34,106 nucleotides of DNA from UHGV virus genome UHGV-0112930. The stretch is one strand, 5' to 3'. Of the stretch, positions 1 to 33,519 are shown one piece after another (the stretch's first letter is position 1; every line of letters starts with the position of its first letter). The notes beneath the pieces were generated by a model. That model was not told the DNA's origin and ran no database searches. It saw only the letters and a list, made by a program, of their open reading frames with translations. Source of the stretch: a virus. The translations under genes and the position numbers were made by a program.

Positions 1-49
1 TACCGTATTATTCCATTTTGCAAACTTAAAAGTTCTCCATTGCGAAGAA

Positions 50-1150: not shown

Positions 1151-1632
1151 GGCAGCAGCCCTCCCACCGTTTTACTGATATCGCTTAAGGCAGACGTTGC
1201 CGTGTCCTGCAGATTATTCAGTTGCGCACTGAGATCACCGAACATATCGGACAGGGATTCATCCACCCGTTTGAGCGACAGGGTGAACTCAATCCGGCGC
1301 GGCATACCGTCGCGGAAAAACTCCGTTTTAGTCTGATTCAGTCCCTCAATCACATACATGCCGTAAATCGTGCCGCTGCCTTCAATCAGGGGCCATGCTT
1401 TCCCCTGTTCTGCCATCTGCTCCAGTACCAGCAACGACAGCCTGCCGCCTGTTATCTCCGACATAAGAACGCCAGAAAGCGTCAGCATGTCGTTATCCGG
1501 TCCCAGAAACTGCGTTGACGGACGTCGGTTTACCCGGCTGTTTGCCGCATGTCGCCAGCTGCGCTGATACTGCAGCTCCTGATACGGCACGGTGCGCAGC
1601 ATAAACACGTACAATCCCAGCACCATCATCAT
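1147..1632 (-). CDS. U: Tail protein U (P2 gpU-like)
   Basis: 161-aa ORF overlapping D by 4 nt and abutting T; position and size fit P2 gpU. Confidence 0.85.
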   Translation of the reverse strand: MMMVLGLYVFMLRTVPYQELQYQRSWRHAANSRVNRRPSTQFLGPDNDMLTLSGVLMSEITGGRLSLLVLEQMAEQGKAWPLIEGSGTIYGMYVIEGLNQTKTEFFRDGMPRRIEFTLSLKRVDESLSDMFGDLSAQLNNLQDTATSALSDISKTVGGLLP

Positions 1633-4600: not shown

Positions 4601-4706
4601 TTGCGCCAGCCAGCTCTTTCGAACTGGCCTGTGCAGCACGGAATGGGCGGGTGAGTTTGTCAACCGCATTAAGAATCACCTGCAGCCGCAGGTTATTGTC
4701 ACTCAT
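1629..4706 (-). CDS. T: Tail tape measure protein (P2 gpT-like)
   Basis: 1025-aa ORF, Ala/Leu-rich coiled-coil N-terminal half and hydrophobic Gly/Ala-rich repeats; sits immediately downstream of E/E'. Confidence 0.9.
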   Translation of the reverse strand: MSDNNLRLQVILNAVDKLTRPFRAAQASSKELAGAIRNSRDALKQLNQAGNSLEKFRKLQADNKKLGDRLNYARQKANLLSSELEAMEQPSQRHLVALGRQTLAVQRLEEQQKYLQKQTALVRAELYRAGISAKDDAGATARLARETSRYNQELSKQEARLKRLGEAQRRMNAARASYARSLEVRDRIAGAGATTTAAGLAMGTPVMAAVKSYTSMEDAMKGVAKQVNGLRDDNGNRTARFYEMQDAIKAASEQLPMENGAVDFAALVEGGARMNVANPDDSWEDQKRDLLAFASTAAKAATAFELPADELSESLGKIAQLYKIPTRNIEQLGDALNYLDDNAMSKGADIIDVMQRLGGVADRLDYRKAAALGSTFLTLGAAPEVAASAANAMVRELSIATMQSKSFFEGMNLLKLNPEVIEKQMTKDAMGTIQRVLEKVNALPQDKRLSAMTMLFGKEFGDDAAKLANNLPELQRQLKLTAGNDALGSMQKESDINKDSLSAQWLLVKTGAQNTFSSLGETLRQPLMDILYTVKSVTGALRRWVEANPELTGTLMKVAAIVAAVTVGLGTLAVALAAVLGPLAVIRLGFSVLGIKTLPSVTAAVTRTSNALSWLAGAPLALLRRGLASSGNAAGLLTAPLSSLRRTASLTGNVLKTVAGAPVALLRSGLSGLRAVAVMFMNPLAVLRGGLTAAGAVLRVLASGPLAMLRVALYAVSGLLGALLSPIGLVVTALAGVALVVWKYWQPITAFLGGVVEGFKAAAGPISAAFEPLKPVFQWIGDKVQALWGWFTDLLTPVKSTSAELQSAAAMGRRFGEALAEGLNMVMHPLDSLKSGVSWLLEKLGIVSKEAAKAKLPESVTRQQPATVNADGKVMMPLGGFPSWGYGFAGMYDSGGYIPRGQFGIVGENGPEIVNGPANVTSRRNTAALAAVVAGMMGVAAAPAELPPLHPLALPAKGGEAMVSRAATVPPVYRIEAPTQIIIQTQPGQSAQDIAREVARQLDERERRLKAKVRSNYSDQGGYDA

Positions 4707-5135
4707 GGCTGGCCCCGCTTCTCTGAATCGCTTTATACCGCCATTCCAGCACTTCGGTCAGCGGCATAACGTCAGTAACGGATGGCGGCCAGTGAAAGAT
4801 GGTGGCGATATCAGCCACCAGATCGTCAACCGTCAGGCTGTCGGTAAACCGGCAAGCACCGACTTCTTCAACAAAAAAGTGACAACCTCAACCGACATGG
4901 CAGTGAGATCTGCCGGGTCCATCTCTGCAATTTCCTGTGCAGTCAGTGCCGGACTGGAGATGCGGGGGATCACGGTCATCATCGCGTTCACATCCATATC
5001 CATAATGGCCTGCAGGCGTGTACCGCGCAGCGCACCGGACTGCGGTTTACGCAGCACAATTTCGGTAATTTCTGTTTTACCGCGCTTGATAGGGGTATCC
5101 AGTTGAATGGTCTTTTCAGTCTGCTTATCGCTCAT
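4699..5135 (-). CDS. Tail assembly chaperone E+E' made by programmed -1 frameshift
   Basis: Minus-strand heptamer T_TTT_TTG (plus coords 4872..4878) lies in the E zero frame. Hand translation of the -1 frame gives ...VEEVGACRFTDSLTVDDLVADIATIFHWPPSVTDVMPLTEVLEWRYKAIQRSGASHE and stops at 4699..4701, overlapping the T start at 4706. Confidence 0.75.
4833..5135 (-). CDS. E: Tail assembly chaperone E (P2 gpE-like)
   Basis: 100-aa ORF ending ...VTFLLKKSVLAGLPTA; contains the slippery heptamer near its 3' end. Confidence 0.88.
   Translation of the reverse strand: MSDKQTEKTIQLDTPIKRGKTEITEIVLRKPQSGALRGTRLQAIMDMDVNAMMTVIPRISSPALTAQEIAEMDPADLTAMSVEVVTFLLKKSVLAGLPTA
4872..4878 (-). other. -1 ribosomal frameshift slippery heptamer (T TTT TTG) for E/E'
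   Basis: Read directly: plus strand caaaaaa, i.e. TTTTTTG on the coding strand, with TTT and TTG as zero-frame codons. Confidence 0.75.
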
Positions 5136-5189
5136 TTTGTTGTCCTGTAAATTGGGTTCTGGCGCGGAATCCCGCGCCGTTCAGATACA

Positions 5190-5705
5190 TCAGAGGCCGA
5201 GGGCGTTGCGGTGCGCTTCCATCAGGTCCACACCGTCCACAATTTCCACCATGTTGATAAGGTCCACTTCATAGAGCACCTCACCATTGATGGTCAGCTT
5301 CGCGTAGCTGTTGGTACTGGTCACTTTGGTGGTGTTGCTTTCGCCCGTCTTCCACTCACCGGAATCCACTTCTTTATGACGTCCACGCACCACAAGCTCC
5401 ACGGCCTGCACTTCCGCGGTATCGTCACGCTGGATAGAGCCGGTAAAGCGCAACTGGATGCCATCCACCGTGGCTTTGCCCATCTGCTTAAACAGCAGCA
5501 GTTCAGTACCACCAATGGAAAATTCTGTGTCCAGCGCACTGTCATCAAGCCCCAGATCCACATCCACTGCCCCCGGCATTCCGCCGCCGCGATACTTCTC
5601 ATATTTGCGGGTGAATTTCGGCAGCGTCAGCGACTCAACGATCCCCTGCCAGTTGTTCCCGTCGTTAAACAGGTTCAGGTGTTTTAATTTGCGTGGTAAA
5701 GCCAT
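5190..5705 (-). CDS. FII: Tail tube protein (P2 gpFII-like)
   Basis: 171-aa ORF between sheath gene and E; translation recognised as P2 FII-like. Confidence 0.88.
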   Translation of the reverse strand: MALPRKLKHLNLFNDGNNWQGIVESLTLPKFTRKYEKYRGGGMPGAVDVDLGLDDSALDTEFSIGGTELLLFKQMGKATVDGIQLRFTGSIQRDDTAEVQAVELVVRGRHKEVDSGEWKTGESNTTKVTSTNSYAKLTINGEVLYEVDLINMVEIVDGVDLMEAHRNALGL

Positions 5706-5714
5706 GTTGTCCCC

Positions 5715-6887
5715 TTACGCGCTGACCTGGCTGGCGAAATTCACCAGGTACTGATCGGTGATGCGCTGACGCAACATCAGGTTTTCAAGTGGCGGCACTG
5801 GCGTGTAGTCGTAGTCGATGGTGAGTTTTCCGGCTTTCAGAGTGTCTTTGTCGTTCACCGACTCGTCCAGCCAGCAATCACCACCAATGAGATACCCCTG
5901 ACTGACCAGGCTGCGCATTTTGGCGCGGATGCCCTCGATAATGTCGCGCGCCAGCGACGGGTTCAGCGGTTTGTCCACTGCCCACATGTGCGCTTCTGCC
6001 ATCGTGTCCGTCAGCACCTGCGCCGTGCGGGTGTAGTTTTCGAAGGCAAAAAGCGGATCATCGCTCAGACAGCGGGAACCCCAGAAGCGGAAACCATCCT
6101 TGCGCACAAGCGTGGTGACGTCGTTCTGGTTAAGCAGTCCCGCATCGGTTGCCGGGTCCTGCAGATCCCAGAACACATCAGCAGAAATTCCGGTGACACC
6201 GTTCACGCCCACGTTGGACAGGCTTTTGTGCCATCCGGTCTGCTCATCAATTTTAGCGCGCAGACCGAGCGCACGAGCGGTGGCATATGCCGTTGCTTCG
6301 GCATTCAGCACCGTGTCCCAGCCAGTAAAGTCAGGCCAGATAAGCATCCCTTCGCGCTGGCTGAAGTTTTCACGGTAAGTGATCGCCTCCTGTACCGTCT
6401 TGCAGCCATACGCTGACAGGTAAGCAAACCCACGCAGGCTTTGCGCCACGCTCAGCAACTCAGTCGCAACGGCTTTGTTATCGTGACCAGGTACGCCGAG
6501 AATGCGCGGTTTAACGCCGAGCTGTGTCTGGGCAGATAACAGGGCTTTCATGCCTGTTTTTTTACCTTCAGCGGTCACTGCGCCGATGATATTGGTCGTG
6601 GTTTCTTCTTCCGTTTCCCCCTGCGGCACACGCACAACAACGGTCACGGGTTTTGCCTGGTCAGCGATGGCATCCAGCGAACGGGCCAGCGTGCCAGACT
6701 CACCCGCTTTACCGCTGGCGGTCAGCACATCAGTGATCAGCACGGGTTTATTAAGAGGAAACATTTTTGCATCGGCATCATCGCCCGTGCAGACCATACC
6801 CACGATGGCGGTGCTCACCGTGGTAATGGATCGGGTGCCTTCGTTGACTTCAACAACGCGCACCCCGTGGTGGTAATCCTGAGCCAT
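5715..6887 (-). CDS. FI: Contractile tail sheath protein (P2 gpFI-like)
   Basis: 390-aa ORF; translation recognised as myovirus sheath; first gene of the F operon. Confidence 0.9.
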
Positions 6888-6963
6888 AGTGGCGAACCTC
6901 CTGATTGGATTAGGCTTCGCCCTATGTTGAAGTGATTGTGCCTGACAAACAGCTAAGCGCAGT

Positions 6964-6981
6964 TGTACCGTTATTCACACA
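6964..6981 (-). promoter_or_regulatory. Ogr-type late activator box (TGT-N12-ACA) upstream of FI
   Basis: Perfect TGTACCGTTATTCACACA read in sequence; centre about 85 bp upstream of the FI start codon. Confidence 0.6.
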
Positions 6982-7029
6982 AAATGACGGTATTTGTTTA
7001 CTTGCAGGGATAATCAAAATAAAGCTGAT

Positions 7030-7602
7030 TCAGGGAGATTCATTGCTCTTATTTGCCGGAAATTTTCTATAAATGGTAGAAACGCCTACATCAAAAATCA
7101 GTGCAATACGCTGTCTTGATTCTCCGGCCTCGAGTAAACGCCCAATCTGTGCCCACTGTTCGGTGGTCAACTTAGGACGGCGTCCACCTACTCTGCCTTT
7201 GGCACGAGCTGCAGCCAGCCCTGCCCTGGTACGTTCAACTATCAGTTCGCGTTCCATTTCAGCCAGGGCACCCATGACATGAAAAAAGAAACGGCCCATT
7301 GGGGTGCTGGTATCAATACTGTCAGTCAGGCTTCGGAAATTCACGCCTCGCTGACGCAACTCTTCTATCAGCGTAACAAGATGCCGCATACTGCGCCCCA
7401 ACCTGTCCAGCTTCCAGACAACCAGCGTGTCTCCTGCCGATAGTGTCCTGAGCAGTTTTTTCAACCCTGGTCTGTCGGACTTAGTGCCACTGATTTTATC
7501 CTCAAAAATCCGCTCACATCCCGCGCAGTTCAGTGCATTACGTTGCAAATCGGTGTTCTGGTCATTTGTTGACACGCGTACATAGCCAATAAGCATGATC
7601 AT
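7030..7602 (-). CDS. Site-specific DNA invertase, serine recombinase of the Hin/Gin/Pin/Cin family
   Basis: 190-aa ORF MIMLIGYVRVSTNDQNTDLQRNAL...; resolvase-type N-terminal catalytic domain with the serine in YVRVSTNDQ and a C-terminal HTH; very similar to e14 Pin as remembered; next to a segment flanked by inverted hix/gix-like sites. Confidence 0.9.
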   Translation of the reverse strand: MIMLIGYVRVSTNDQNTDLQRNALNCAGCERIFEDKISGTKSDRPGLKKLLRTLSAGDTLVVWKLDRLGRSMRHLVTLIEELRQRGVNFRSLTDSIDTSTPMGRFFFHVMGALAEMERELIVERTRAGLAAARAKGRVGGRRPKLTTEQWAQIGRLLEAGESRQRIALIFDVGVSTIYRKFPANKSNESP

Positions 7603-7651
7603 CCCCCTGAATAAAAACCGGGGATGATGCCAGTTAGCCGTAATCGCTGCA

Positions 7652-7677
7652 TTTTCTTAAACGTTGGTTTGGGAGAA
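7652..7677. repeat. Left inversion crossover site (hix/gix-like 26-bp site)
   Basis: tttcttaaacgttggtttgggagaa; its reverse complement shares the 15-nt core CTTCTCCCAAACCAA with the right site. Half sites fit the TTCTxxxAAACC / GGTxTxxGAxAA pattern of Hin/Gin sites. Confidence 0.6.
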
Positions 7678-8157
7678 GGTTCGGCATTACCTGTTGGTGT
7701 ACCTGTTCCATGGCCTTCAGCCACTCCGCCGACAGGCTGGCTGAAATGCAACGGTGCAGCTTTTTCTGCTGAAGAATACCCGGAACTGGCAAAGGCTTAT
7801 CCGACAAATAAATTGCCTGATTTACGTGGTGAGTTTATTCGTGGCTGGGATGACGGGCGTGGAGCTGACAGTGGTCGGGGATTATTAAGCTTTCAAAAAG
7901 CCACTCTGGTTGAAAGTTTTGGTCTGGTCAGGTCACCAACCACTGGCTCTTATCGTCTGGTTACCAGACCGACAGAAACTGTTTCTGATAATACGTCTAA
8001 CTATATGACGACTGATTATGATTCCCGTGAAGGTTTATATTCCCCTGCAACAGCATACCCCTCTATCGAATTGCCACCAACTGGAGCAGGCGCAGGGGCT
8101 GGTTTTAGGGTTCGACCAAGGAATATTGCATTTAACTATATTGTGAGGGCTGCATAA
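7663..8157 (+). CDS. Silent alternative tail-fibre C-terminal cassette (expressed only after inversion, fused to H constant region)
   Basis: Open frame ...NVGLGEGSALPVGVPVPWPSATPPTGWLKCNGAAFSAEEYPELAKAYPTNKLPDLRGEFIRGWDDGRG..., a tail-collar-type fibre tip. It has no start codon or promoter of its own after the crossover site; the upstream part of the 7624 ORF is an artefact. Confidence 0.7.
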   Translation, partial: VGLGEGSALPVGVPVPWPSATPPTGWLKCNGAAFSAEEYPELAKAYPTNKLPDLRGEFIRGWDDGRGADSGRGLLSFQKATLVESFGLVRSPTTGSYRLVTRPTETVSDNTSNYMTTDYDSREGLYSPATAYPSIELPPTGAGAGAGFRVRPRNIAFNYIVRAA

Positions 8158-8759
8158 TGGATAACGCCATATTAAATAGCGAGATTATCGCCACCAAAGC
8201 AGGGAATATTACCGTCTATAACTATGATGGTGAAACTCGAGAATATATTTCCACTTCAAATGAATATCTTGCTGTTGGCGTCGGTATCCCTGCATATTCC
8301 TGTTTAGATGCCCCTGGCACACATAAGGCGGGTTATGCTATCTGCCGTTCGATGGATTTAAACTCATGGGAATATGTGCCAGACCATCGCGGTGAAATCG
8401 TCTATAACACCGAAACGGGAGACGCCAAAGAAATCACAACTCCGGGTGATTACCCCGAAAAAACAACCACTATCGCCCCGTTAACGCCATACGATAAATG
8501 GGATGGTGAGAAATGGGTGACGGATACCGAGGCACAGCATAGCGCCGCAGTAGACGCGGCAGAAGCACAACGTCAGTCACTGATTGATACTGCAATGGCT
8601 TCCATTAGTCTGATTCAACTGAAATTGCAGGCCGGACGGAAGTTGACGCAGGCAGAAACAACCCGACTTAACGCCGTGCTGGATTACATTGACGCGGTGA
8701 CGGTAACAGATACCAGCACCGCGCCGGATGTCATCTGGCCTGAACTGCCGGAGGCGTAG
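8157..8759 (+). CDS. Tail fibre assembly chaperone, alternative copy (partner of the silent cassette)
   Basis: 200-aa ORF directly following the silent fibre cassette; C-terminal ...LDYIDAVTVTDTSTAPDVIWPELP mirrors the C-terminus of the minus-strand Tfa. Confidence 0.8.
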   Translation: MDNAILNSEIIATKAGNITVYNYDGETREYISTSNEYLAVGVGIPAYSCLDAPGTHKAGYAICRSMDLNSWEYVPDHRGEIVYNTETGDAKEITTPGDYPEKTTTIAPLTPYDKWDGEKWVTDTEAQHSAAVDAAEAQRQSLIDTAMASISLIQLKLQAGRKLTQAETTRLNAVLDYIDAVTVTDTSTAPDVIWPELPEA

Positions 8760-9174
8760 GCCATTCAATATCTGGAGCACTGGAAGTATCGACCAGTTCC
8801 AGTGCGTCCAGATAATCCAACCACAAATTATATTGCGCCAGTTCCTCACCTTTCAGACGACCAATAGCGGCTTTACCGGGCCATTGCTTACTGTTCATGT
8901 GTTCGTTGGCCTGATTAAGCAATAATTGTCTTTCTGATTCTGCCTGTTGAATAAGTTCTTCATGTGATGGTTGAGGTATTTCAGCCCATGTGGGAAAACC
9001 ATTTACCCCTGCAACTCGGATTTTCCCTTGTGGCGGTTTCGCCATATATTTTACAGAAATGTTATCAGGAATATCTAATGCATCAGCGGGCCATGTTCCA
9101 TTTACTTCATAAGTATTTTTTAAATTAACAGCATAAAATGCATTTTCCGAAGGGGAATAAATATATTGATTCAT
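8731..9174 (-). CDS. G: Tail fibre assembly chaperone (P2 gpG-like), active orientation
   Basis: 147-aa ORF immediately downstream of H; C-terminal ...LWLDYLDALELVDTSSAPDIEWPTPP; 3' end overlaps the convergent alternative copy by about 29 nt. Confidence 0.85.
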   Translation of the reverse strand: MNQYIYSPSENAFYAVNLKNTYEVNGTWPADALDIPDNISVKYMAKPPQGKIRVAGVNGFPTWAEIPQPSHEELIQQAESERQLLLNQANEHMNSKQWPGKAAIGRLKGEELAQYNLWLDYLDALELVDTSSAPDIEWPTPPAVQAR

Positions 9175-9175
9175 A

Positions 9176-10573
9176 TTATCTTCCTATTGCAATAATCATA
9201 GTTCCATACAAACCATTTCCGGTTGATACTTTTAAGGTTACTGATGTCCTTGTTGTCGTGTACCCCATAAGTTTAAAGGTCGGAGCAGCCGTTAATGTGC
9301 CATCAGACCATAAGGCACTAACAGCAAGTGCACCTGAAGGAAATGCAATAGGGAAATTACCAGTAGTTCCGTTAGTGTCCGCCCCATAAACATTCATCGA
9401 AAACATTTGGACAATATGACCACTTGGTAACTGAAACCAGTTTTTGCCAGATGGGAATGCAGACATATCTGGTATCTGATTTTCCCCTGTTCCCACATTT
9501 CGTTTTGCCGCTTCTCCCAAACCAAGGTATGCGAGAAGACCAGCTACATCCTTTCCACTCAAATTAGTCAGCGTATTGTCCAGCGGTTGTTTACCTGCCA
9601 GCGCATTAAGCATTGTCGTGGCAAAGTTCGGATCATTCCCCAGCGCCGCCGCCAGTTCGTTCAGTGTATCTAGGGCCGCAGGTGCAGAACCCACCATTCC
9701 TGCAATCGCCGATTTCACAAATGCCGTAGTGGCAATCTGTGTATTGTTGACCGACTGCGCCGCCGTGGGGGCTGTTGGCGTTCCGGTGAGTGCCGGACTC
9801 GACAGCGGCGCTTTCAGTGCCAGCGCATTGTTAATGGTGGTACTGAATTTCGGATCATTGTTAATGGCTACGGCTATTTCTTTCAGCGTGTCCAGCGTGG
9901 CTGGCGCACCATTAATAAGAGCCGTCAGTGCCGCCTGAACAAATGCGGTGGTCGCAAGCTGCGTGGTATTATTCCCCGCCGCTGGCGTTGGCGCTTTGGG
10001 GGTTCCGGTAAACGTCGGACTTTCTTTGGGTGCATACTGTGAATGCGGGTCCGGTGCGGCAAGATGTTTTGCCATCAGGTCATCCACGTACACCTTCAGC
10101 TCCAGTGCCTTGTCATCCACATACTTGCGGGTTGCCAGCACTACAGCAGGGTCGATTTTCAGGGTGATATTGTCCGTACTGCTGGTAATCAGCACCATGC
10201 GCACAGTCTGGGTGCGCCCGCTGCCTTCAGCCAGTTGCGGCTTATAGCTTTCCGGGCAGTTGCCCACGGCAATCAATGCCCCGGACTCATCAAACAGGCC
10301 CACTTCACGTATCCACCAACCGCCCTCGTTTTCAGGGATCACCTGTTCAGCAATAATCTGGCTGCTGTTCTGCGGGTCGATATAAAGCATATTCAGCGCA
10401 GCCCGGCGTTTCTCATTTACCAGTGCCGTCTGCTTTGCGTCCGGCGTTGGCAATACTCCGCCGCCATCGCCCACCGCCATATGGGTAATTTTTAGCGGCA
10501 CACCGAGCGCGGCGGCGCTGGCAAGTTTCGCCGCGCCAATATCCGTCAGCAGGGTATAAAATTTTGTGCTCAT
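9176..10573 (-). CDS. H: Tail fibre protein (P2 gpH-like), constant N-terminal region plus currently expressed variable C-terminus
   Basis: 465-aa ORF; N-terminus MSTKFYTLLTDIGAAKLASAAALGVPLKITHMAVGDGGG is P2 H-like, followed by Ala/Thr-rich repeats. The crossover site lies in-frame at ...AYLGLGEAAKRN. Confidence 0.9.
   Translation of the reverse strand: MSTKFYTLLTDIGAAKLASAAALGVPLKITHMAVGDGGGVLPTPDAKQTALVNEKRRAALNMLYIDPQNSSQIIAEQVIPENEGGWWIREVGLFDESGALIAVGNCPESYKPQLAEGSGRTQTVRMVLITSSTDNITLKIDPAVVLATRKYVDDKALELKVYVDDLMAKHLAAPDPHSQYAPKESPTFTGTPKAPTPAAGNNTTQLATTAFVQAALTALINGAPATLDTLKEIAVAINNDPKFSTTINNALALKAPLSSPALTGTPTAPTAAQSVNNTQIATTAFVKSAIAGMVGSAPAALDTLNELAAALGNDPNFATTMLNALAGKQPLDNTLTNLSGKDVAGLLAYLGLGEAAKRNVGTGENQIPDMSAFPSGKNWFQLPSGHIVQMFSMNVYGADTNGTTGNFPIAFPSGALAVSALWSDGTLTAAPTFKLMGYTTTRTSVTLKVSTGNGLYGTMIIAIGR
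9512..9537. repeat. Right inversion crossover site (hix/gix-like 26-bp site)
   Basis: ttctcccaaaccaaggtatgcgagaa, inverted relative to 7652..7677 with an identical 15-nt core. Confidence 0.6.
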
Positions 10574-11175
10574 GGATTCACTCTCATTGTGTCAATAACA
10601 TGGACCGCCCCGCCTTCATGCGCGGTGCCACCGGAAATAATCGTTTCGTTGATATACGGATAGATCGTGATTTCTTCGCCAAGATAGCTGGCGGCTCCCA
10701 CCCAGTGCGGGCCGCTGGTCTGCAGATTGATGGACATGCCGATCATGTGGCGGCTACATGGTTTGGCATCGCTTATCAGTCGCTCAAGTTCCAGATAGGT
10801 ATCTTCAGTGATGCCCTGGTCCTGCACGCCGATATCCAGGCGAAACGTGCCCGGTGCCTCTCCGGTCTGCCACCACTCAATAATGCGGATCAGAAAGCCG
10901 AACGGCTCCACCACCCGCCGCACGGCACTGGTGGTCCCTTTATGCTGATGAATATAAAAAGCATCCTTCACCACCTGGCGTTTGACGCTTTCTGTCCAGC
11001 CCTCGTCCCAGCGATCCACAGAGAACGCCCAGGCGAGATAAGGCAGGAAACTGACCGGACAGGTTGCCGGATTCCACAAGTCACGCTGCGGCACCTGCAG
11101 ATCAGAAATCCCGCTGCAGGTTTGCGCCAGTCGGCGCTCCAGTGGTGTTGAACCCGGTGGCAGCAGACTATTCAT
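10570..11175 (-). CDS. I: Baseplate protein I (P2 gpI-like)
   Basis: 201-aa ORF overlapping H start by 4 nt; position between J and H. Confidence 0.88.
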   Translation of the reverse strand: MNSLLPPGSTPLERRLAQTCSGISDLQVPQRDLWNPATCPVSFLPYLAWAFSVDRWDEGWTESVKRQVVKDAFYIHQHKGTTSAVRRVVEPFGFLIRIIEWWQTGEAPGTFRLDIGVQDQGITEDTYLELERLISDAKPCSRHMIGMSINLQTSGPHWVGAASYLGEEITIYPYINETIISGGTAHEGGAVHVIDTMRVNP

Positions 11176-12076
11176 CCGTTCCTCCGTTGGTTACGCTCCA
11201 CTGCGTACATGATGCCGCCTGTGTTTTGTTCAGGACCACATCCGCCAGAGGAGAAGCCAGCTCCACACGCTGCACACCCTCAACATGCAGGGCGGCAAAG
11301 ATGGCGCTACGGCGAATATCCCGACCAAGACGCGTCTGACTGGCGATGTACTTCTGCAGGCTGGCTTTTGCCGCTGCCATTACCGGCTCTGCTTCCGGTC
11401 CAGGATAGAGAAAAATGGTGGCTTCCACGCGATACGGGATGATTTCTGCGCTGCGAACCGTAAGACGGTCAGCCACCGGGCGGACGTTCTCACTGTTCAG
11501 AGCTTTTTCCACCACGTCCAGCAGGTCTTTTTCTGCAGTTCCATCGCCTTCGCGGCTAAGGACAGTCAGCACCACCTCTGCAGGTGCCGGGCTGGTTGCA
11601 CTGGCATCCGCCACCCGACCGTCGGCGCTTCGGGCATGAAATTCATAAGCTGCAGTTGGCCCCGCAACTGAAAGCCCTTCAAAGGCTGCAGGCACACGCA
11701 GGCGTAACGCTTCATCGCTTTCCATCACAGCTGCAACGGGCGGCACAGCGTCATTATCAGCAGGCGTCACCGTCAGGCGTTTCACGTTGTAGTTGGCAGC
11801 GAGCTGGTCAAGATCGCTGCCCATCGCGTAAGCCACCATCACAGCCTGCGCGGCTTCGTTAATGCGCTGGCGCAGAAGCAACTCACGGTAAGCGTTCTCC
11901 TGCAGCAATTTGGTGACGGGTTCAGATTCCAGTTCCAGAGTGCGGATCACTGCTTCCTGCTCATCTTTCGGATGAAGCGCCACAAATTCTGCCTTGCGTT
12001 CGGCAAGCAGCGTCTCAAAGTCCGGCACATCCACAATCTGCGGCGCAGGCAACTGCGAAAGGTCAATCACTGCCAT
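11168..12076 (-). CDS. J: Baseplate assembly protein J (P2 gpJ-like)
   Basis: Translation MAVIDLSQLPAPQIVDVPDFETLLAERKAEF... is P2 J-like. Start taken at the internal ATG (12076) rather than the GTG-extended start at 12115. Confidence 0.88.
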   Translation of the reverse strand: MAVIDLSQLPAPQIVDVPDFETLLAERKAEFVALHPKDEQEAVIRTLELESEPVTKLLQENAYRELLLRQRINEAAQAVMVAYAMGSDLDQLAANYNVKRLTVTPADNDAVPPVAAVMESDEALRLRVPAAFEGLSVAGPTAAYEFHARSADGRVADASATSPAPAEVVLTVLSREGDGTAEKDLLDVVEKALNSENVRPVADRLTVRSAEIIPYRVEATIFLYPGPEAEPVMAAAKASLQKYIASQTRLGRDIRRSAIFAALHVEGVQRVELASPLADVVLNKTQAASCTQWSVTNGGTDE

Positions 12077-18039: not shown

Positions 18040-18873
18040 TCAGCAATTGGTCAGAGTGTCAGCGGGGGCGTTACCGCCTGTTGCACGCTGGCGGTAGTCC
18101 TGGCGGCTGTCTTCATGACTCAGCTTGTCCACCAGTTCGTTAAAGGCGGTTTGCTGTGCCTGCAGGGCAGTCTCCAGCTCAGACAGGCGTTCTTCCTGCT
18201 CAGACAGGGATTTTTCGGTGCGTGCGCTCAGATTCTGCTGCTCAGTGGCGACCAGCTCCACGGCCTTATGCACATCAGAGAACCGGGCGTCATCGGACTG
18301 CTCTTTTTTGGTAAACAGCGCCGTGACGCGGGCAAACAGGGACGGTTTGTCGTCCTGGACTTCTTCCAGTTCGATCACCGTTTCCTCTGCAGCGGTAAAG
18401 AGATTGGCGGGGTTCTGCTTGCGGTTTGCCAGCGGGTTATGGGCTGCACTGGCGCTGAATGTCAGCATTTCAGTGCCCAGACTGGCAGGGTCATCAGTGG
18501 CAGCCAGGCCAACCAGGTAGGCTTTGCCCGTATCAGCGAACTTCGGGCTGACTTCCATAGAGGTGAATAATTTCTGGCCTTTTTTCACCAGCTCCACCAG
18601 GGACTCCGTTGGCTCAACGTCGGCATACAGCGCCATCTTGCCTGCCAGTGGACCTTCCGTGATTTCTTCAGCAAACAGCGCCGTCACCTTGCCGTAGCGG
18701 TTAAAGGTGCTGTCCGGCAGATAAGACTTGATGTGCTCAAGGTTAATCAGCGCGGTATACACCGCCGGGTTGTAGCTGGCTGCCATCTGTTCCAGCCATT
18801 CTCGCTGGATTTCGCGTCCGTCGGTGGTGGCACCTTCCACCCCGATGCGAAAACGCTTTGCTTTCACTGTCAT
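18040..18873 (-). CDS. O: Capsid scaffolding protein O (P2 gpO-like)
   Basis: 277-aa ORF; acidic coiled-coil C-terminal half; first gene of the O-N-M-L... operon, divergent from P. Confidence 0.9.
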   Translation of the reverse strand: MTVKAKRFRIGVEGATTDGREIQREWLEQMAASYNPAVYTALINLEHIKSYLPDSTFNRYGKVTALFAEEITEGPLAGKMALYADVEPTESLVELVKKGQKLFTSMEVSPKFADTGKAYLVGLAATDDPASLGTEMLTFSASAAHNPLANRKQNPANLFTAAEETVIELEEVQDDKPSLFARVTALFTKKEQSDDARFSDVHKAVELVATEQQNLSARTEKSLSEQEERLSELETALQAQQTAFNELVDKLSHEDSRQDYRQRATGGNAPADTLTNC

Positions 18874-20782: not shown

Positions 20783-21807
20783 TGGGAAAGAGTAAGAAAA
20801 ACCGCGCAGCGGCGATGAATCAGATCCAGCATAAAAGCCAGACTTCAGCCGAAGCATTCAGCTTCGGCGATCCCGTTCCTGTTCTGGACCGTCGCGAACT
20901 GCTGGACTATGTGGAATGCGTACAGATGGACCGCTGGTATGAGCCGCCTGTAAGTTTCGACGGCCTGGCGCGAACATTCCGCGCCGCCGTACACCACAGC
21001 TCACCGATTGCAGTAAAGTGCAACATTCTGACCAGCACCTATATCCCTCACCCGCTGCTCAGCCAGCAGGCTTTTTCACGTTTTGTGCAGGACTATCTGG
21101 TATTTGGTAACGCCTACCTGGAGAAACGCACGAACCGCTTCGGTGAAGTTATCGCCCTTGAACCTGCGCTGGCAAAATACACCCGACGCGGGTTAGACTT
21201 GGATACCTACTGGTTTGTGCAATACGGCATGACTACGCAGCCGTATCAGTTCACGAAAGGCAGCATCTTTCATCTGATGGAACCGGATATCAACCAAGAG
21301 ATCTACGGCCTGCCCGGTTATCTTTCTGCCATTCCGTCAGCCCTGCTCAACGAGTCCGCCACGTTGTTCCGCCGTAAGTATTACATCAACGGCAGCCATG
21401 CAGGTTTCATCATGTACATGACCGATGCCGCGCAGAACCAGGAAGATGTGAACAACCTCCGCAATGCGATGAAAAGCGCCAAAGGTCCAGGCAATTTCCG
21501 AAACCTGTTTATGTACTCGCCTAACGGCAAAAAGGACGGGCTTCAGATTATCCCGTTGTCAGAGGTCGCAGCGAAGGATGAGTTTTTGAATATCAAGAAC
21601 GTTAGCCGGGATGACATGATGGCGGCGCATCGTGTGCCGCCGCAAATGATGGGGATTATGCCTAATAATGTTGGGGGGTTTGGGGATGTAGAGAAAGCCA
21701 GTTGCGTTTTTGTTCGTAACGAATTGATGCCGCTACAGAAACGGCTACAGGAACTAAATAGATGGTTGAAAGATGAAATTATCCGTTTTGCGACATACTC
21801 ATTATGA
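20779..21807 (+). CDS. Q: Portal protein Q (P2 gpQ-like)
   Basis: 342-aa ORF overlapping the P stop by 4 nt; translation recognised as P2 Q-like. Confidence 0.9.
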   Translation: MMGKSKKNRAAAMNQIQHKSQTSAEAFSFGDPVPVLDRRELLDYVECVQMDRWYEPPVSFDGLARTFRAAVHHSSPIAVKCNILTSTYIPHPLLSQQAFSRFVQDYLVFGNAYLEKRTNRFGEVIALEPALAKYTRRGLDLDTYWFVQYGMTTQPYQFTKGSIFHLMEPDINQEIYGLPGYLSAIPSALLNESATLFRRKYYINGSHAGFIMYMTDAAQNQEDVNNLRNAMKSAKGPGNFRNLFMYSPNGKKDGLQIIPLSEVAAKDEFLNIKNVSRDDMMAAHRVPPQMMGIMPNNVGGFGDVEKASCVFVRNELMPLQKRLQELNRWLKDEIIRFATYSL

Positions 21808-21868: not shown

Positions 21869-23617
21869 TTAGAATGCGGATTTGATTTTTTTCTCAAATG
21901 CCTCATATACAGGCTGGTTCATTTGGGCCGTTGCAGTAATAAGCTGTGAAAAATTTGATATACAATCTTTAACTTTTGTAGGACTTTTCAACCCTCCTTC
22001 AACCAGTGCAGGCAGCAACTGATTACTTAAAGCCAGACACACATCTACAATTGGCTCCCAAATACTTTCAGCCTGAGAAGGAGAGACTGTACTTCCAAAC
22101 GAAACTCTAAATAAATTAGGAACGGGACGGCCCAAAAAGTTTTCCAAACATTCGGCAATAGCCGAGCACAATAAAGGTATTGAACCACGATGCCTGAGAT
22201 ATCCCAATTGAGCGCTATCATTTTTTGAAAGAGTATCTTTCTTTGCCAAAGCTATTTTCTTGTTCTCAATACACCGCATGAGAGAATACGCACAAACAAT
22301 ATGTGAAGCTTTTGTACTGTCATTAAAAATCTTAGAATAATGAGAGTCATTAGTCCAAATTGCAGATCGCTGATTATAAGCTACCGTCGGCTCTCCATGG
22401 AAACTCATCAAAGCTTGACCAACAGTATAAGAAGGCAGTAGATTAGTTTTTCGACGAATGACACTTTCAGCACCTCCTCGTCTTCCTCCATCATATTCAG
22501 CATCAGGAATAGAAGCAAATTCATTTTTAAGTCGTTTTTGAATTTTGTCTGTGCTTCTGAAATCAGATGCTTCAACTTTATTCTGACTGTTATTATACTG
22601 AATTATATTCTGAATTAGATCAGCATCCGCATCTTTGACTTTTATAAATCTAGCTTGGACTTTAACTGATTCTGGAGGTAATCGTGGCAGCGTTCCTAAA
22701 GCACCTGTTGTCTGTGCTCCATTAACTATTGACATCCCTCTGATTTCAAGATTCTTTGATGCTTCATTGAATTTATATTCATGAACCAAAACAGTTACGC
22801 CATTATTGTATGCCCAAAATTCTGATGCTGAATTTTCCGCACTGTTACGGATACCATTATTGATATTTGAATCAGATGACCTTGATCCAAGGTAGTCTCT
22901 AACATTTGCTGAAAATATTTTTAATTTATGCTTTTTGTACGCTCTAGCTAAATCTCTTCCCTGAATGGTAGTACAGAATGCATTCCAATTATCTCCTTTT
23001 ATTTCGTAGCCACCATCACTGACCTTAATATTGAAAATCTCATCAACCAGTATTGGTGATAGTGATTCACTATACCATTCCGTCAACTTTTCAGTGCCTA
23101 CCTCCATTGCATGCACTTGTATTTTAGCATCTTCAAAATCATGTTTTAAAATAGTTGTTGCTGTCTGCTGAACCGTAATTAGCTCTTGAGCCACATTTGT
23201 TGAAGATGGTAAGTTATGAACATACCAAACGTACAGAGTTTTAATTTTCCCTTGTTTGATTGATGTCCGTATCTGTTGAGCAGAAGATTTTATTCTATCG
23301 GGTACATCATGCAAATCTCTTTGCAGAAGCCATGCTAAAGCAATATTAAGATCACTCGCTTTATTTGCTGGAGCTTCCTGTCTATCTTTGCTTGAGAAAT
23401 AGCATTGAGCAAGTACAGCAAATTCTTCTTCTTCATTAATATACACAAGGTCACATTTCTTATCGTCATGTCCATCGGTAATGGACTCTGCTGCGACACT
23501 ATCAATGTCATCAATTCTAAAATGTAATGCTAACGCAAACAAAGCCAGTCCATTATCACCATACGATTTCAAATCTTCTCTTGCAGAATAGGCTTGGTTC
23601 CAGGTACTCATTATCAC
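21869..23617 (-). CDS. Large uncharacterised cargo protein (582 aa), candidate anti-phage / abortive-infection-type protein
   Basis: Long uninterrupted ORF in AT-rich DNA, unlike the GC-rich phage core, inserted between the Q terminator and the cos site. No P2 structural counterpart at this position. Contains NVRDYLG, EFWAYNNGVT and IVNGAQTT motifs. Confidence 0.7.
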   Translation of the reverse strand: MIMSTWNQAYSAREDLKSYGDNGLALFALALHFRIDDIDSVAAESITDGHDDKKCDLVYINEEEEFAVLAQCYFSSKDRQEAPANKASDLNIALAWLLQRDLHDVPDRIKSSAQQIRTSIKQGKIKTLYVWYVHNLPSSTNVAQELITVQQTATTILKHDFEDAKIQVHAMEVGTEKLTEWYSESLSPILVDEIFNIKVSDGGYEIKGDNWNAFCTTIQGRDLARAYKKHKLKIFSANVRDYLGSRSSDSNINNGIRNSAENSASEFWAYNNGVTVLVHEYKFNEASKNLEIRGMSIVNGAQTTGALGTLPRLPPESVKVQARFIKVKDADADLIQNIIQYNNSQNKVEASDFRSTDKIQKRLKNEFASIPDAEYDGGRRGGAESVIRRKTNLLPSYTVGQALMSFHGEPTVAYNQRSAIWTNDSHYSKIFNDSTKASHIVCAYSLMRCIENKKIALAKKDTLSKNDSAQLGYLRHRGSIPLLCSAIAECLENFLGRPVPNLFRVSFGSTVSPSQAESIWEPIVDVCLALSNQLLPALVEGGLKSPTKVKDCISNFSQLITATAQMNQPVYEAFEKKIKSAF

Positions 23618-23886: not shown

Positions 23887-24564
23887 CTAGAACGTGACAG
23901 CCTTGTCAAAGCCAGAAATAATTGTATAAGAAATAGACGAGTTATCAGCCTTGTTCACTTTGAACTTGGCACCTTTGTAAGCGATAACATCACTTCCCTT
24001 AGAATCTACAGAAAAATCTGTTGTAAATGCTGCACGAGCCATATCGTTTGCAAATTCACGATAGGTGAACTTCATTACACCGCCTGCATTTCCATTGTAT
24101 TCGATAGTCTTAACCAATGAATTACTCACTCGACACAGCCCATCAGGAACACGTTTGATAGAAATTTCTGATGCAGTATAAGAAGTGCCATTTGGCGGTG
24201 ATATCTCATTTTTTGCAGCATCGTAGCTAACATAATCAACATAGTTACCGATTTGCCCATAGAGATTTTTTAACGCAACAGCTTGAGGGTTATGATAATT
24301 GCGGTAAATTCCATTCCCCTCACTGCAATATGTACCAGCAGCGATAGAAGACAATGCACCATTAGCCGCACCAAGTTCTAGTACGTCCGTTTTAAATCCA
24401 GTAGCAGATGTGATAATGGGATCGCCCATGTAGGCGGTAGCACTTTGCCCAATAGCTGGCTTCACCACTTCAATAGCAGTGATATTTCGGTTAGAAGCAT
24501 GTGGCACGCAACCAGTTAGGATTACAGCAAGAGATATTGGTAACGCTACATTATTAATTTTCAT
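23887..24564 (-). CDS. Lipoprotein of unknown function (225 aa), phage cargo
   Basis: Start taken at MKINNVALPISLAVILTGC (lipobox LTGC) rather than the extended ORF start at 24618, which would run through an upstream terminator hairpin. AT-rich gene between cos and the SOS module. Confidence 0.7.
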   Translation of the reverse strand: MKINNVALPISLAVILTGCVPHASNRNITAIEVVKPAIGQSATAYMGDPIITSATGFKTDVLELGAANGALSSIAAGTYCSEGNGIYRNYHNPQAVALKNLYGQIGNYVDYVSYDAAKNEISPPNGTSYTASEISIKRVPDGLCRVSNSLVKTIEYNGNAGGVMKFTYREFANDMARAAFTTDFSVDSKGSDVIAYKGAKFKVNKADNSSISYTIISGFDKAVTF

Positions 24565-24677: not shown

Positions 24678-24911
24678 TCAATGCAGCCAGCTGTCGTCTT
24701 CCCACACCTTCTGCAAAATTTTCATCACTTGTTTTCTTTCTTCGTCCAGTTGCAGTCCGGTCAGTTCCACACCGTTAGAGCTACCTTTACGGATACGGAT
24801 TACCGTTTTGGGATACAGGGGGCGCAGATTGCGGTAAAGCTCGGATTCAAGGGCGTCCAGGGTAGACTGGCTAATCTTCTGCTCTTTATCGATCATTATT
24901 TCAATGCGCAT
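24678..24911 (-). CDS. DinI-like damage-inducible protein
   Basis: MRIEIMIDKEQKISQSTLDALESELYRNLRPLYPKTVIRIRKGSSNGVELTGLQLDEERKQVMKILQKVWEDDSWLH resembles E. coli DinI (MRIEVTIAK...ISEILQETWESADDWF). Start at the internal ATG, preceded by GAGGTG. Confidence 0.85.
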   Translation of the reverse strand: MRIEIMIDKEQKISQSTLDALESELYRNLRPLYPKTVIRIRKGSSNGVELTGLQLDEERKQVMKILQKVWEDDSWLH

Positions 24912-24921
24912 AAAAGTCACC

Positions 24922-25110
24922 TCAGCTGATGACATCCATTGAGCGGTTGTATTCGTGGCTTCTGATTTTTGCCATGAGTTCATCTGTCAGTTCAGAAACC
25001 CACTGCAGAGCCAGCCCCTTCTCTTCATCACTACACTCACTAGCCGCTACAAGCTTAAGAAAAAAATCAATGCGCTGAAGCTTCAAAGACTCCAAAAAAT
25101 AGTCCTGCAT
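24922..25110 (-). CDS. Small protein (62 aa) co-transcribed with the dinI-like gene, candidate Tum-like antirepressor
   Basis: ORF with strong SD AGGAGGA 5 nt upstream; stop 10 nt before the dinI-like start; LexA box in its promoter. Confidence 0.6.
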   Translation of the reverse strand: MQDYFLESLKLQRIDFFLKLVAASECSDEEKGLALQWVSELTDELMAKIRSHEYNRSMDVIS

Positions 25111-25151: not shown

Positions 25152-25171
25152 CACTGTTTATATTTACAGTA
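25152..25171 (-). promoter_or_regulatory. LexA (SOS) box overlapping the promoter of the 62-aa/dinI-like operon
   Basis: cactgtttatatttacagta contains CTGT-N8-ACAG with an AT-rich spacer, close to the consensus TACTGTATATATATACAGTA; it overlaps a TATACT -10-like hexamer on the minus strand. Confidence 0.7.
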
Positions 25172-30693: not shown

Positions 30694-30897
30694 TTAAGCA
30701 GACAAAGCATCAACAGTCAGAGCAGCCAGGTTAATCATTACCTTTTCACGTTTTTTGTCTTTACGAAGACGATGACGAGGTAGTCGGCCATCAGCCAACA
30801 TGTCGTTAATCGTATCAATAGAAAGGCCTGTCAGTTCGCTATAACGTTCGATTGTGACATGTGGTGTATTCAGAGTAATTGAAATGTTAGGTGTCAT
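30694..30897 (-). CDS. apl: Apl/Cox-like excisionase-repressor (small HTH protein)
   Basis: 67-aa ORF, first gene of the early lytic operon, divergent from cI; basic C-terminus. Confidence 0.65.
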
Positions 30898-31042: not shown

Positions 31043-31612
31043 GTGGATTTCAATAGCGGCGGTAAGAAAGCCATAGAACGTTTAGTTGAAGCATATGGGT
31101 TCGGTACCCGTCAGGCTCTCTGTGATCATTTAGGTGTTTCTAAGAGCACCATGGCAACGCGCTATATGCGTGATATTTTTCCAGCAGATTGGGTAATCCA
31201 GTGCGCCCTTGAAACGGGCACCTCGCTTAATTGGCTAACAACAGGGCATGGTTCAAAGCAAGCATCAGCAAATACAAATACTATAGAAGTAGAAAAATAT
31301 TTATTGTCTGATGGAGCATTGCAGAAAGACGGTTTTTATATTTTTGATAAGGGATTTCTACCCTCTACGTTTAAAAAACCTTTTGTCATCACAGATAACA
31401 ATTCTGAATTTATTTGTGATAAAGAATTTGATGATATACGTGATGGTAAATGGGTAATAAGTATTGATGGCGAAATAACGATCCGTGACATTACTCGTTT
31501 ACCCGGTGGAAGAATCTTCGTCGAGGGTGGAAACAGAGCCTTCGAATGCAAGATAGAAGACATTGAAATAATTGGTAAAATTATAAGTTTAACAGTCAAG
31601 TATGTTAAATAG
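31043..31612 (+). CDS. cI: CI immunity repressor (186 CI-like)
   Basis: ...ERLVEAYGFGTRQALCDHLGVSKSTMATRYMRDIFPADWVIQCALETGTSLNWLTTGHG... resembles 186 CI as remembered. Start proposed at GTG 31043, preceded by GGAGGA; the ORF-track ATG at 30956 would leave no room for operators. Confidence 0.75.
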   Translation: MDFNSGGKKAIERLVEAYGFGTRQALCDHLGVSKSTMATRYMRDIFPADWVIQCALETGTSLNWLTTGHGSKQASANTNTIEVEKYLLSDGALQKDGFYIFDKGFLPSTFKKPFVITDNNSEFICDKEFDDIRDGKWVISIDGEITIRDITRLPGGRIFVEGGNRAFECKIEDIEIIGKIISLTVKYVK

Positions 31613-31627
31613 TACCGGGAGGAAACT

Positions 31628-31819
31628 ATGCTTGGTAAGGTATTTTTTGTGGTTTTGTCATGTTCTTTGTTATTAAACCCACTAACTACCTATGCTAGAA
31701 ATTATCCCTGCTCAGGGAAAAAGGGAGGTGTTTCTCACTGTACCTCAGATGGCAAATTCGTTTGCAATGATGGAACTATTAGTAAATCCAAAAAAATCTG
31801 TACTAAAAACTCACGATAA
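31628..31819 (+). CDS. Small exported Cys-rich peptide (63 aa) between cI and int
   Basis: Signal-peptide-like N-terminus [23 protein letters not shown]; the mature part has 5 Cys and is Lys-rich; AT-rich. Confidence 0.5.
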
Positions 31820-32007
31820 CTTTTGCTTTTATATCTGCGTCTAAAATAAAAATGAGCCGCAGGTTAACCGCAAAAGTTACATGCTCACATAGCAAAAAGA
31901 ATAGCCAACTTCATTATGGCTTCAGTGAGATGTATGGTCGTAGGATTTCATACATTGACACTGGTTATACATACAGTAAAAATGCTCTCTACTGGAGGGC
32001 ATCTTTT

Positions 32008-33039
32008 ATGGCAGTACGAAAACTCACCACAGGGAAATGGCTTTGCGAATGTTACCCCGCCGGACGAAGTGGGCGTCGTGTGCGTAAACAATTCGCCACC
32101 AAAGGCGAAGCTCTGGCTTTTGAGCGTCACACGATGGAAGAAACCGAATCAAAGCCCTGGCTGGGCGAATCAGTGAATCGTCGAACCCTGAAAGACGTGG
32201 TTGAGCTATGGTTCAAACTACATGGTAAATCTCTGACTGCTGGACAGCATGTCTATGACAAATTGCTGCTGATGGTTGACGCCCTAGGCAATCCTCTTGC
32301 AACCGATCTCACCTCTAAAATGTTTGCCCACTATCGAGATAAACGCCTGACAGGCGAGATCTACTTCAGCGAGAAATGGAAGAAAGGAGCAAGCCCGGTC
32401 ACCATTAACCTGGAGCAAAGCTATCTAAGTAGTGTTTTTAGCGAACTATCCCGTCTGGGCGCATGGTCGTATCCGAACCCACTGGAGAACATGCGATAAT
32501 TCACCATCGCAGAAAAAGAGATGGCATGGCTTACCCATGAGCAGATTGTTGAATTACTGGCTGATTGCAAACGTCAGGACCCAATTCTGGCACTGGTAGT
32601 TAAGATATGCTTAAGCACAGGCGCACGCTGGCGTGAAGCCGTAAATCTTACCCGCTCACAGGTGACTAAATACCGAATTACCTTTGTCAGAACGAAGGGG
32701 AAGAAAAACAGAAGCATCCCTATCAGTAAAGAGCTTTACGAAGAGATCATGGCGCTTGATGGGTTCAATTTCTTCACAGACTGCTATTTTCAATTTTTAT
32801 CCGTGATGGAAAAAACGTCTATCGTGCTCCCTCGCGGTCAACTGACACACGTTCTGCGCCATACGTTTGCGGCGCATTTCATGATGTCGGGTGGAAATAT
32901 CCTTGCTTTGCAAAAAATCCTCGGACATCACGACATAAAAATGACCATGCGTTACGCACATCTGGCACCGGATCACCTGGAAACTGCATTACGGTTTAAT
33001 CCGCTGGCAACACTACCAACATCAACAGCAACTGTTTGA
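32008..33039 (+). pseudogene. int: Tyrosine integrase (P2/186 family) interrupted by an in-frame TAA
   Basis: N-terminal part MAVRKLTTGKWLCECYPAGRSGRRVRKQFATKGEALAFERH... ends at TAA 32497..32499. The same frame continues seven codons later with MAWLTHEQIVELL... through a catalytic region with ...HVLRHTFAAHFMMSGGNILALQKILGHHDIKMTMRYAHL. Confidence 0.7.
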
Positions 33040-33099: not shown

Positions 33100-33369
33100 A
33101 TGAATGAGTTACAGCATCAGGGAGCTGAGCTACGCAACAAAGCCAAAGAATTGGCTTTATCCGTACTCAGAACTCACCCAGATGGTCAAAAAAACGGTAA
33201 AGGGGTTAAACAAGCTGAAGTATTTCGCCTTAGTGGCCTAGATTGGGGAGAAAAACGAAAAGCAACAAGTTCGAACCAACAATATTGGGTTGTTGCGTTA
33301 TTGCGTGAACTAGAAGACGAAGGTTTAGTCGAGCAGGTTGAAGAAAAAGGGCCATGGCGTCTAAGGTAA
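33100..33369 (+). CDS. Hypothetical protein (89 aa) downstream of int
   Basis: Start taken at MNELQHQGAELRNKAKE...; AT-rich; followed by a plus-strand terminator, so probably part of the phage cI-int transcription unit. Confidence 0.5.
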   Translation: MNELQHQGAELRNKAKELALSVLRTHPDGQKNGKGVKQAEVFRLSGLDWGEKRKATSSNQQYWVVALLRELEDEGLVEQVEEKGPWRLR

Positions 33370-33438
33370 AACAAGTGGCGACAAAGTGGCGGCAGCGGTT
33401 GGCATTACCCCGTAATAACCACCACTGACCACCAACCC

Positions 33439-33470
33439 AACTTATTGTTTTTACTCTAACTTATTGTTTT
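33439..33470. repeat. Two copies of a 13-bp direct repeat (aacttattgtttt) near the prophage end, possible integrase arm sites
   Basis: Exact 13-nt repeat at 33439..33451 and 33458..33470. Confidence 0.35.
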
Positions 33471-33474
33471 CATT

Positions 33475-33500
33475 AACCCGTTTACATAAATGGGTTTTTT
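33475..33500 (+). terminator. Rho-independent terminator ending the int-side transcription unit
   Basis: Hairpin aacccgtt-tacata-aatgggtt (8 bp including one G-U pair) followed by TTTTTT. Confidence 0.5.
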
Positions 33501-33519
33501 GTTGCCTGAAATTTATCTA

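Follow-up and report, generated by a model that had tools for sequence, protein, structure and literature searches.

Probable inactivation of the integrase gene by a nonsense mutation in a 186-type prophage of Escherichia coli

The integrase gene (int) of a prophage inserted between ybjL and rcdA of Escherichia coli is most probably a pseudogene. We analysed 34,106 nt of virus genome UHGV-0112930 (this whole stretch is referred to as the window), which represents the right-hand part of a prophage of 186/P2 type (Peduoviridae). The explanation that we prefer, with a probability of roughly 0.85, is that a real, lineage-specific nonsense mutation (K164*) has inactivated int, leaving the prophage locked in the chromosome yet SOS-inducible. 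Such a prophage would be a very early snapshot of prophage grounding, with one lesion and the remainder apparently intact.

Interrupted integrase gene

The int frame opens with ATG at 32008 on the + strand, 8 nt downstream of the Shine-Dalgarno sequence GGAGGG. Counted from this ATG, codon 164 is an in-frame TAA (32497-32499). In-frame initiation is next possible at ATG 32521 (codon 172), and the frame closes with TGA at 33037-33039. The gene is composed as follows.

32008..32499, + strand: 5' part of int, 163 codons and premature TAA; arm-binding N-terminus and core-binding domain
32497..32499, + strand: premature ochre stop K164*, caused by A>T at 32497; next base T (TAAT)
32521..33039, + strand: 3' part of int, catalytic domain; codons 172-343 and TGA, same frame

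The peptides around the stop read ...PNPLENMR*FTIAEKEMAWLTHEQIVELL... and agree with those quoted in an earlier sequence-only reading of this DNA. Its description of two same-frame ORFs split by TAA at 32497..32499 is borne out by our analysis. When Int of phage 186 was used as tblastn query, a single HSP crossing the stop was obtained (32008-33024, 54.7% identity, E 3.6e-124). Because 186 Int aligns across the stop in one HSP, the two ORFs are, on the evidence of this alignment, halves of one interrupted gene and not chance ORFs. E. coli F829 has a 343-aa integrase colinear with the interrupted frame; only three amino acid differences, the stop included, were counted in the first 337 codons.

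Comparison with intact integrases, proposed in the sequence-only reading as the way to learn which codon had been replaced, gave AAA (Lys) in all relatives examined. This codon is found in F829, Klebsiella phage 4LV2017 and phage vB_EcoM-813R9, in 3/3 matches among GTDB representative genomes, and in 120 of 120 IMG/VR contigs (TAA in none). The same holds for aligned relatives, where AAA occupies codon 164 in 129/129 and 151/151 loci. Since AAA occurs in every relative, the lesion is, judged from these alignments, a single A>T transversion converting AAA to TAA (K164*) and confined to one lineage.

With a 61-mer that has the stop at its centre as query, 1010 complete E. coli genomes were hit, all of them in the 95-99% identity band; among the 15 matches listed, identity is 98.4%, i.e. 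60 of 61 bases. The identical 61-mer with TAA was not found in the 5,426 complete E. coli genomes searched, and exact-pattern scans of JGI metagenomes likewise did not retrieve the TAA version. Two relatives were considered as carriers of further interrupted integrases and rejected as artefacts, one due to an alignment offset from an N-terminal indel (L121), the other due to low-quality poly-C sequence (L139).

Position of the stop in integrase structure

In an intact relative, the core-binding domain (Pfam Int_N, PF24624) covers residues 57-165. The 5' ORF of the window retains Int_N at residues 58-163 (E 2e-30) and matches phrog_11531, annotated as 'integrase'; this is a family of 144 positions corresponding to the N-terminal part of P2-type integrases only. 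The downstream ORF contains the Phage_integrase domain (PF00589, E 5e-23). The catalytic-domain chain of HP1 integrase (1AIH) aligns with residues 169-334 (E 6e-58), and chain 5C6K, listed under the name 'Integrase', aligns from residue 48 onwards (E 2e-47). We take 5C6K and 5DOR to be structures of P2 integrase.

The domain boundary is fixed by the solved structures of HP1 and P2 integrases. Since Int_N ends at residue 165 and 1AIH starts at 169, the stop is located, by these domain assignments, in the interdomain linker at the end of the core-binding domain. It precedes the start of the 1AIH-aligned catalytic domain by 5 residues, and the downstream ORF begins 3 residues after the start of the 1AIH chain. 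The 172-aa downstream ORF is, on the same structural alignment, almost exactly the isolated catalytic domain. The translation places all six catalytic residues (R207, K230, H281, R284, H307 and Y316) downstream of the stop, and the active-site set of tyrosine recombinases, R-K-H-x-x-R-H-Y, is present in the downstream ORF. The presence of Int_N and close homology to Int of 186, P2 and HP1 assign the protein to the P2/186/HP1-type subfamily. No uninterrupted frame joins DNA-binding and catalytic domains, as TAA stands at codon 164. The attribution to a P2-family integrase and the proposed separation of the N-terminal from the catalytic domain are thus both upheld, the former by Pfam, by HP1 and 5C6K alignments and by the similarity to 186 Int, the latter by the position of the stop between Int_N and the residues covered by 1AIH.

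The two start codons differ in their potential for ribosome binding. Pairing of the Shine-Dalgarno sequence at int ATG 32008 is strong (dG -9.8, spacing 8). At ATG 32521, dG is only -1.7 kcal/mol with spacing 0, i.e. Shine-Dalgarno pairing is absent, and a ribosome-binding site of its own was ruled out for the downstream ORF. The C-terminal piece is therefore, as far as these predictions go, obtainable only via reinitiation 21 nt after termination. The sequence-only reading had considered a C-terminal fragment reinitiated at the downstream ATG; the route itself is possible, but it is expected to be weak since this ATG has no Shine-Dalgarno sequence. TAA followed by T (TAAT) is the most efficient terminator context in E. 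coli. A phage-borne suppressor tRNA was considered and dismissed, as the window contains no tRNA gene.

Occurrence of the stop in other assemblies

Exact protein look-up revealed that the 163-aa and 172-aa fragments are called as neighbouring genes on several contigs. Among the contigs read, the exact 163-aa fragment was found on 7 and the exact 172-aa fragment on 10. TAA is also present in ERZ651866, ERR1578655, ERR2017751 and ERZ28598996/SAMEA104142411, which are 100% identical to the window over 11.6, 11.6, 1.9 and 3.3 kb, respectively. Some of these four assemblies possibly represent one sample twice, for example where a single run was assembled by both ENA and Logan, so that no fewer than two independent observations can be counted. 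Because four accessions share TAA on 100% identical DNA, a random sequencing error appears very unlikely, and this alternative of the sequence-only reading loses most of its weight.

One of the ten contigs encoding the 172-aa fragment (L006, from SRR33636699) was discarded as a stop carrier; it ends one base before ATG and is therefore uninformative on the stop. The left prophage end was available in another contig, L014 (GCA_047582245.1), where it is identical to the window. Look-ups with neighbouring proteins did not retrieve the int region of this assembly. Comparison of L014 with positions 1-11632 of the window shows 100% identity except for an inverted tail-fibre segment, in which one base is different.

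This segment (7661-9525) comprises the C-terminus of the tail fibre and tail-fibre-assembly genes. It is inverted with respect to L014, with one mismatch inside and 100% identical flanks, and it is adjoined by a gene for Hin/Gin-type resolvase (invertase; ORF 7030-7602, - strand). It looks like an invertible host-range switch caught both ways round.

Other lineage-specific changes

Besides the stop, three substitutions in and near int distinguish the window from its relatives.

32003, + strand: T>C in spacer between Shine-Dalgarno sequence and int ATG; T in 107 relatives, gap in 41
32176, + strand: D57N missense, GAT>AAT; G in all 129-150 relatives
32462, + strand: E152A missense, GAA>GCA; A in all 129-150 relatives

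Across 24-33 kb, where 70-150 relatives were aligned, these three and the change at 32497 are the only window-unique substitutions, and all four are located in the 5' half of int or shortly upstream of it. The window-specific coding changes in int (K164*, D57N and E152A) are amino-acid-changing in 3/3 cases. Among 17 relatives, int contains 80 variable codons, 71 of which have synonymous changes only and 9 amino-acid-changing ones. The scaffold (O) and portal (Q) genes together carry 8 window-unique changes, 8/8 synonymous. Comparison of amino-acid-changing substitutions in int (3/3) and in O and Q (0/8) yields Fisher p = 0.006, a value based on tiny counts and on panels of unequal depth.

Since all int changes alter the protein while all O/Q changes are synonymous, constraint on int appears to be lost; with only 3 versus 8 substitutions, the pattern is suggestive. 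It would be easier to reconcile with a true pseudogene, or with selection for inactivation, than with a functional split or readthrough gene. An intermediate allele (E152A together with AAA), sought in order to establish the sequence of mutations, was not found in scans of JGI metagenomes and IMG/VR.

The eight substitutions in the virion genes lie at 18232-18802 (O) and 21199-21501 (Q), five of them within 300 bp of Q. Only 20-45 relatives align in these regions, and a patch from an unsampled allele probably explains the unique changes there.

Attachment site, genetic switch and virion genes

The sequence-only reading had also claimed that the prophage keeps an apparently intact SOS-inducible switch and a complete set of virion genes. 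Relevant elements are listed below.

24678..24911, - strand: 77-aa DinI-like gene, homologue of C-terminal half of Tum (Pfam DinI, phrog_189)
25154..25169, - strand: perfect LexA box TACTGTAAATATAAACAGTG, the only CTGT-N8-ACAG match in the window
30694..30897, - strand: gene for Cox/Apl-like excisionase and repressor, 67 aa, full length (phrog_575, E 8e-29)
31043..31612, + strand: 186-type CI immunity repressor, 189 aa (Pfam Phage_CI_repr and Phage_CI_C)
33100..33369, + strand: 89-aa ORF between int and attR, in position of 186 Orf69; no Pfam/PHROG match
33373..33394, + strand: two tandem 11-nt arm-type Int sites, AAGTGGCGACA and AAGTGGCGGCA, matching 186-type consensus
33490..33516, + strand: att core of 27 bp, attR copy, ATGGGTTTTTTGTTGCCTGAAATTTAT; same 27-mer beside ybjL in L014

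On the host side, the flank containing rcdA shows no difference from CFT073 and further E. coli strains (100% identity). Matching att cores as well as arm-type sites were found, attL being read only in L014 because it lies outside the window. The arm-type sites match the reverse complement of the published consensus of 186-type arm sites, tgccGCCActt (PMC3448106). The stretch from these sites to the att core contains AACTTATTGTTTT twice in exact form, 19 nt apart (33439-33451 and 33458-33470); they may be candidate sites for Cox/Apl-like excisionase or IHF. At the other prophage end, as seen in L014, the T-run of an apparent ybjL terminator partly coincides with the 27-bp att core. In attR (33473-33516), the same T-run is preceded by a short stem supplied by the phage, ACCCGTTTACATAAATGGGT.

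The exact 89-aa protein encoded next to attR adjoins intact 343-aa integrases in many genomes. The excisionase gene occupies the position of 186 apl and has the same length in relatives. The CI gene is located upstream of int on the same strand, and the exact CI protein is widespread. The LexA box lies upstream of an operon coding for 62-aa and 77-aa proteins, in the position of 186 p95. When residues 71-145 of Tum were compared with the 77-aa ORF by tblastn, 43% identity was observed (E 5e-20). The 62-aa ORF (24922-25110, - strand; phrog_698) precedes the 77-aa ORF, at a place where 186 has a single Tum of 146 aa. CII, recognised by its Pfam domain, a Fil homologue and replicase A are present as well, and no virion or lysis ORF of the window deviates in length from its counterparts in relatives. 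The late activator gene ogr/B and attL are situated just outside the window and are present in contig L014.

The gene set of a 186-type SOS-inducible phage thus appears to be present, as CI, Cox/Apl, CII, the LexA box and homology to the C-terminus of Tum were all detected. Within the window, both the SOS switch and the virion genes look intact, in line with the sequence-only reading; completeness of the set with regard to ogr/B was checked only on L014.

Two slots of the prophage contain cargo. The first, flanked by the Tum-like operon on one side and the portal gene on the other, holds an AIPR abortive-infection gene (580 aa, 21869-23617, - strand) and a conserved 225-aa ORF (phrog_1353, 23887-24564, - strand) in the position of 186 Orf97. 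In relatives, reverse transcriptases, GmrSD, KAP NTPase, DUF4145 and others are found there, and the slot therefore appears to be a hotspot of defence cargo. In the second slot, between cI and int, the window has a 63-aa YdcA-like ORF (31628-31819, + strand), preceded by a strong Shine-Dalgarno sequence and with an N-terminus resembling a signal peptide. Very different cargo is found at this place in relatives, namely KAP NTPase, DUF4747 and proteins of 325-400 aa with no assigned function.

Proposed consequences of the mutation

We propose the following course of events. The A>T change turned Lys164 into an ochre stop in this lineage, and translation from the strong int start would end after 163 residues. 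The arm- and core-binding part would then be released without the catalytic domain. The latter would be made at low level at most, by reinitiation, and would not be joined to the half that clamps DNA. Excision by tyrosine integrases needs full-length Int, which bridges arm and core sites, as well as excisionase. Since full-length Int is needed, the prophage is very probably excision-defective; this loss follows from what is known of tyrosine integrases, and recombination between attL and attR would very probably not take place. Under SOS conditions, the LexA box, the Tum-like protein and inactivation of CI would still switch on lytic genes. We infer that induction would kill the cell while yielding few or no packageable circles, with the element staying in the chromosome. 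If the host contains a second prophage whose Int has the same specificity, that enzyme could act in trans.

For annotation, this case is a warning. A prophage that most likely cannot excise or spread alone would here be scored as 'intact' by tools based on gene content. The prophage may also serve as a convenient natural control in induction and excision experiments.

Alternative explanations

That TAA merely reflects faulty sequencing or assembly of a really intact integrase gene is, in our view, extremely unlikely. In favour of an error, the change concerns one base only, and TAA was not encountered in complete RefSeq genomes of E. coli, in IMG/VR or in JGI metagenomes. Against this, four accessions whose assembly pipelines differ (SPAdes-type contigs from ENA, contigs from Logan) show the same T on DNA otherwise 100% identical. 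Moreover, int carries two more lineage-specific missense changes, and the context CGA-TAA-TTC is non-repetitive with no homopolymer. If the stop is accepted as real, some integrase activity might persist, either by readthrough of TAA or by reassembly of the 163-aa piece and the reinitiated 172-aa piece as a split recombinase on att DNA. Split fragments of Cre can complement each other, and the two domains separated by the break in the window, which lies in their linker, fold independently. The downstream ORF resembles the crystallised HP1 catalytic domain and is free of lineage-specific amino acid changes, and its ATG, 21 nt after the stop, is reachable by post-termination reinitiation. This ATG nevertheless lacks a Shine-Dalgarno sequence, TAAT is generally known to terminate efficiently, and the window offers no suppressor tRNA. 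Changes at two residues of the N-terminal piece that are invariant in about 150 relatives misfit continued selection, and the split form is found in one clone and does not recur across the family. We therefore regard residual activity as very improbable. Even less probable is a natural split tyrosine integrase, in which reassembly would provide low, tunable excision or the N-terminal part would confer, as a dominant-negative factor, 'integration immunity' against related phages using the same att site.

The truncation might, on the other hand, be adaptive, because the host locks in a useful prophage or because the arm-binding fragment acts as dominant-negative towards related integrases. It is in favour of this explanation that the four unique substitutions of the 24-33 kb region all lie within 32003-32497 and that none of them is synonymous. 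The prophage also carries the AIPR gene and other cargo, and the N-terminal fragment keeps a strong ribosome-binding site, with which it would be made wherever int is transcribed. However, three or four substitutions are too few to separate positive from relaxed selection, and loss of int does not spare the cell from lethal induction. The allele is also rare: neither the 1010 complete genomes nor the 120 viral contigs contain it. Adaptive truncation is accordingly improbable in our opinion, and we retain plain inactivation of int by K164* as the preferred explanation.

Comparison with known systems

Coliphage 186 (GenBank U32222) is the reference for the organization described here. Along its full length, its Int (336 aa) is 54.7% identical to that of the window. 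The order of elements is alike: att and arm sites, small ORF, int, cI, divergent apl/cox-like gene, cII and fil, followed by A and the LexA-controlled Tum operon. The arm-type sites of the window are of 186 type as well. SOS induction of 186 is mediated by Tum under the control of LexA; on the leftward transcript of this phage, int follows cI (PMC7708051). Two differences were noted. The int gene of 186 is uninterrupted, whereas codon 164 of the window is a stop, and the Tum homologue of the window corresponds only to the C-terminal half of Tum, with a separate 62-aa ORF before it.

The ybjL/rcdA site has already been described as the location of ΦECO1 (E. coli HS), ΦECO2 (ATCC 8739) and ΦECO3 (CFT073) by Nilsson et al. 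2011 (PMC3448106). ΦECO1-3, the F829 prophage, 4LV2017 and vB_EcoM-813R9 share the insertion site and the integrase family with the window, at 94-98% DNA identity. The CI type of the window is common to F829 and the usual E. coli relatives. In all prophages and phages named here, int is intact (326-350 codons), and AAA stands where the window has TAA.

With HP1 integrase 1AIH, the 172-aa ORF of the window aligns end to end and shares the same catalytic residues. 1AIH, 5C6K and 5DOR are fragments engineered for crystallography, whereas the fragment boundary in the window has been made by a natural nonsense mutation. Truncated forms occur elsewhere in the same integrase family; a 207-aa form is present on 155 contigs (Shigella boydii, S. 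dysenteriae). A truncated form of 103 aa is represented on 247 contigs. As many truncated forms are seen in the 90% protein clusters, broken copies of this integrase family are frequent in databases.

Prophages are known to become 'grounded' or domesticated when genes for integration or excision are inactivated (Ramisetty and Sudhakari 2019, PMC6379469; border-mapping survey, PMC13626063). The prophage described here belongs to the same class of mechanism, in which loss of integration/excision fixes a prophage in the chromosome. The K164* allele is new as such, but the kind of event is ordinary and already known, and it points to no new mechanism. In two relatives (L165 and L168), the early region is replaced or interrupted by IS (DDE_Tnp_1) insertions and a reverse-transcriptase gene, which represents far more advanced decay. 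No deletion, IS insertion or other interrupted ORF is visible in the window. Compared with grounded prophages in general, this element stands at the very first step, with one nonsense and two missense changes.
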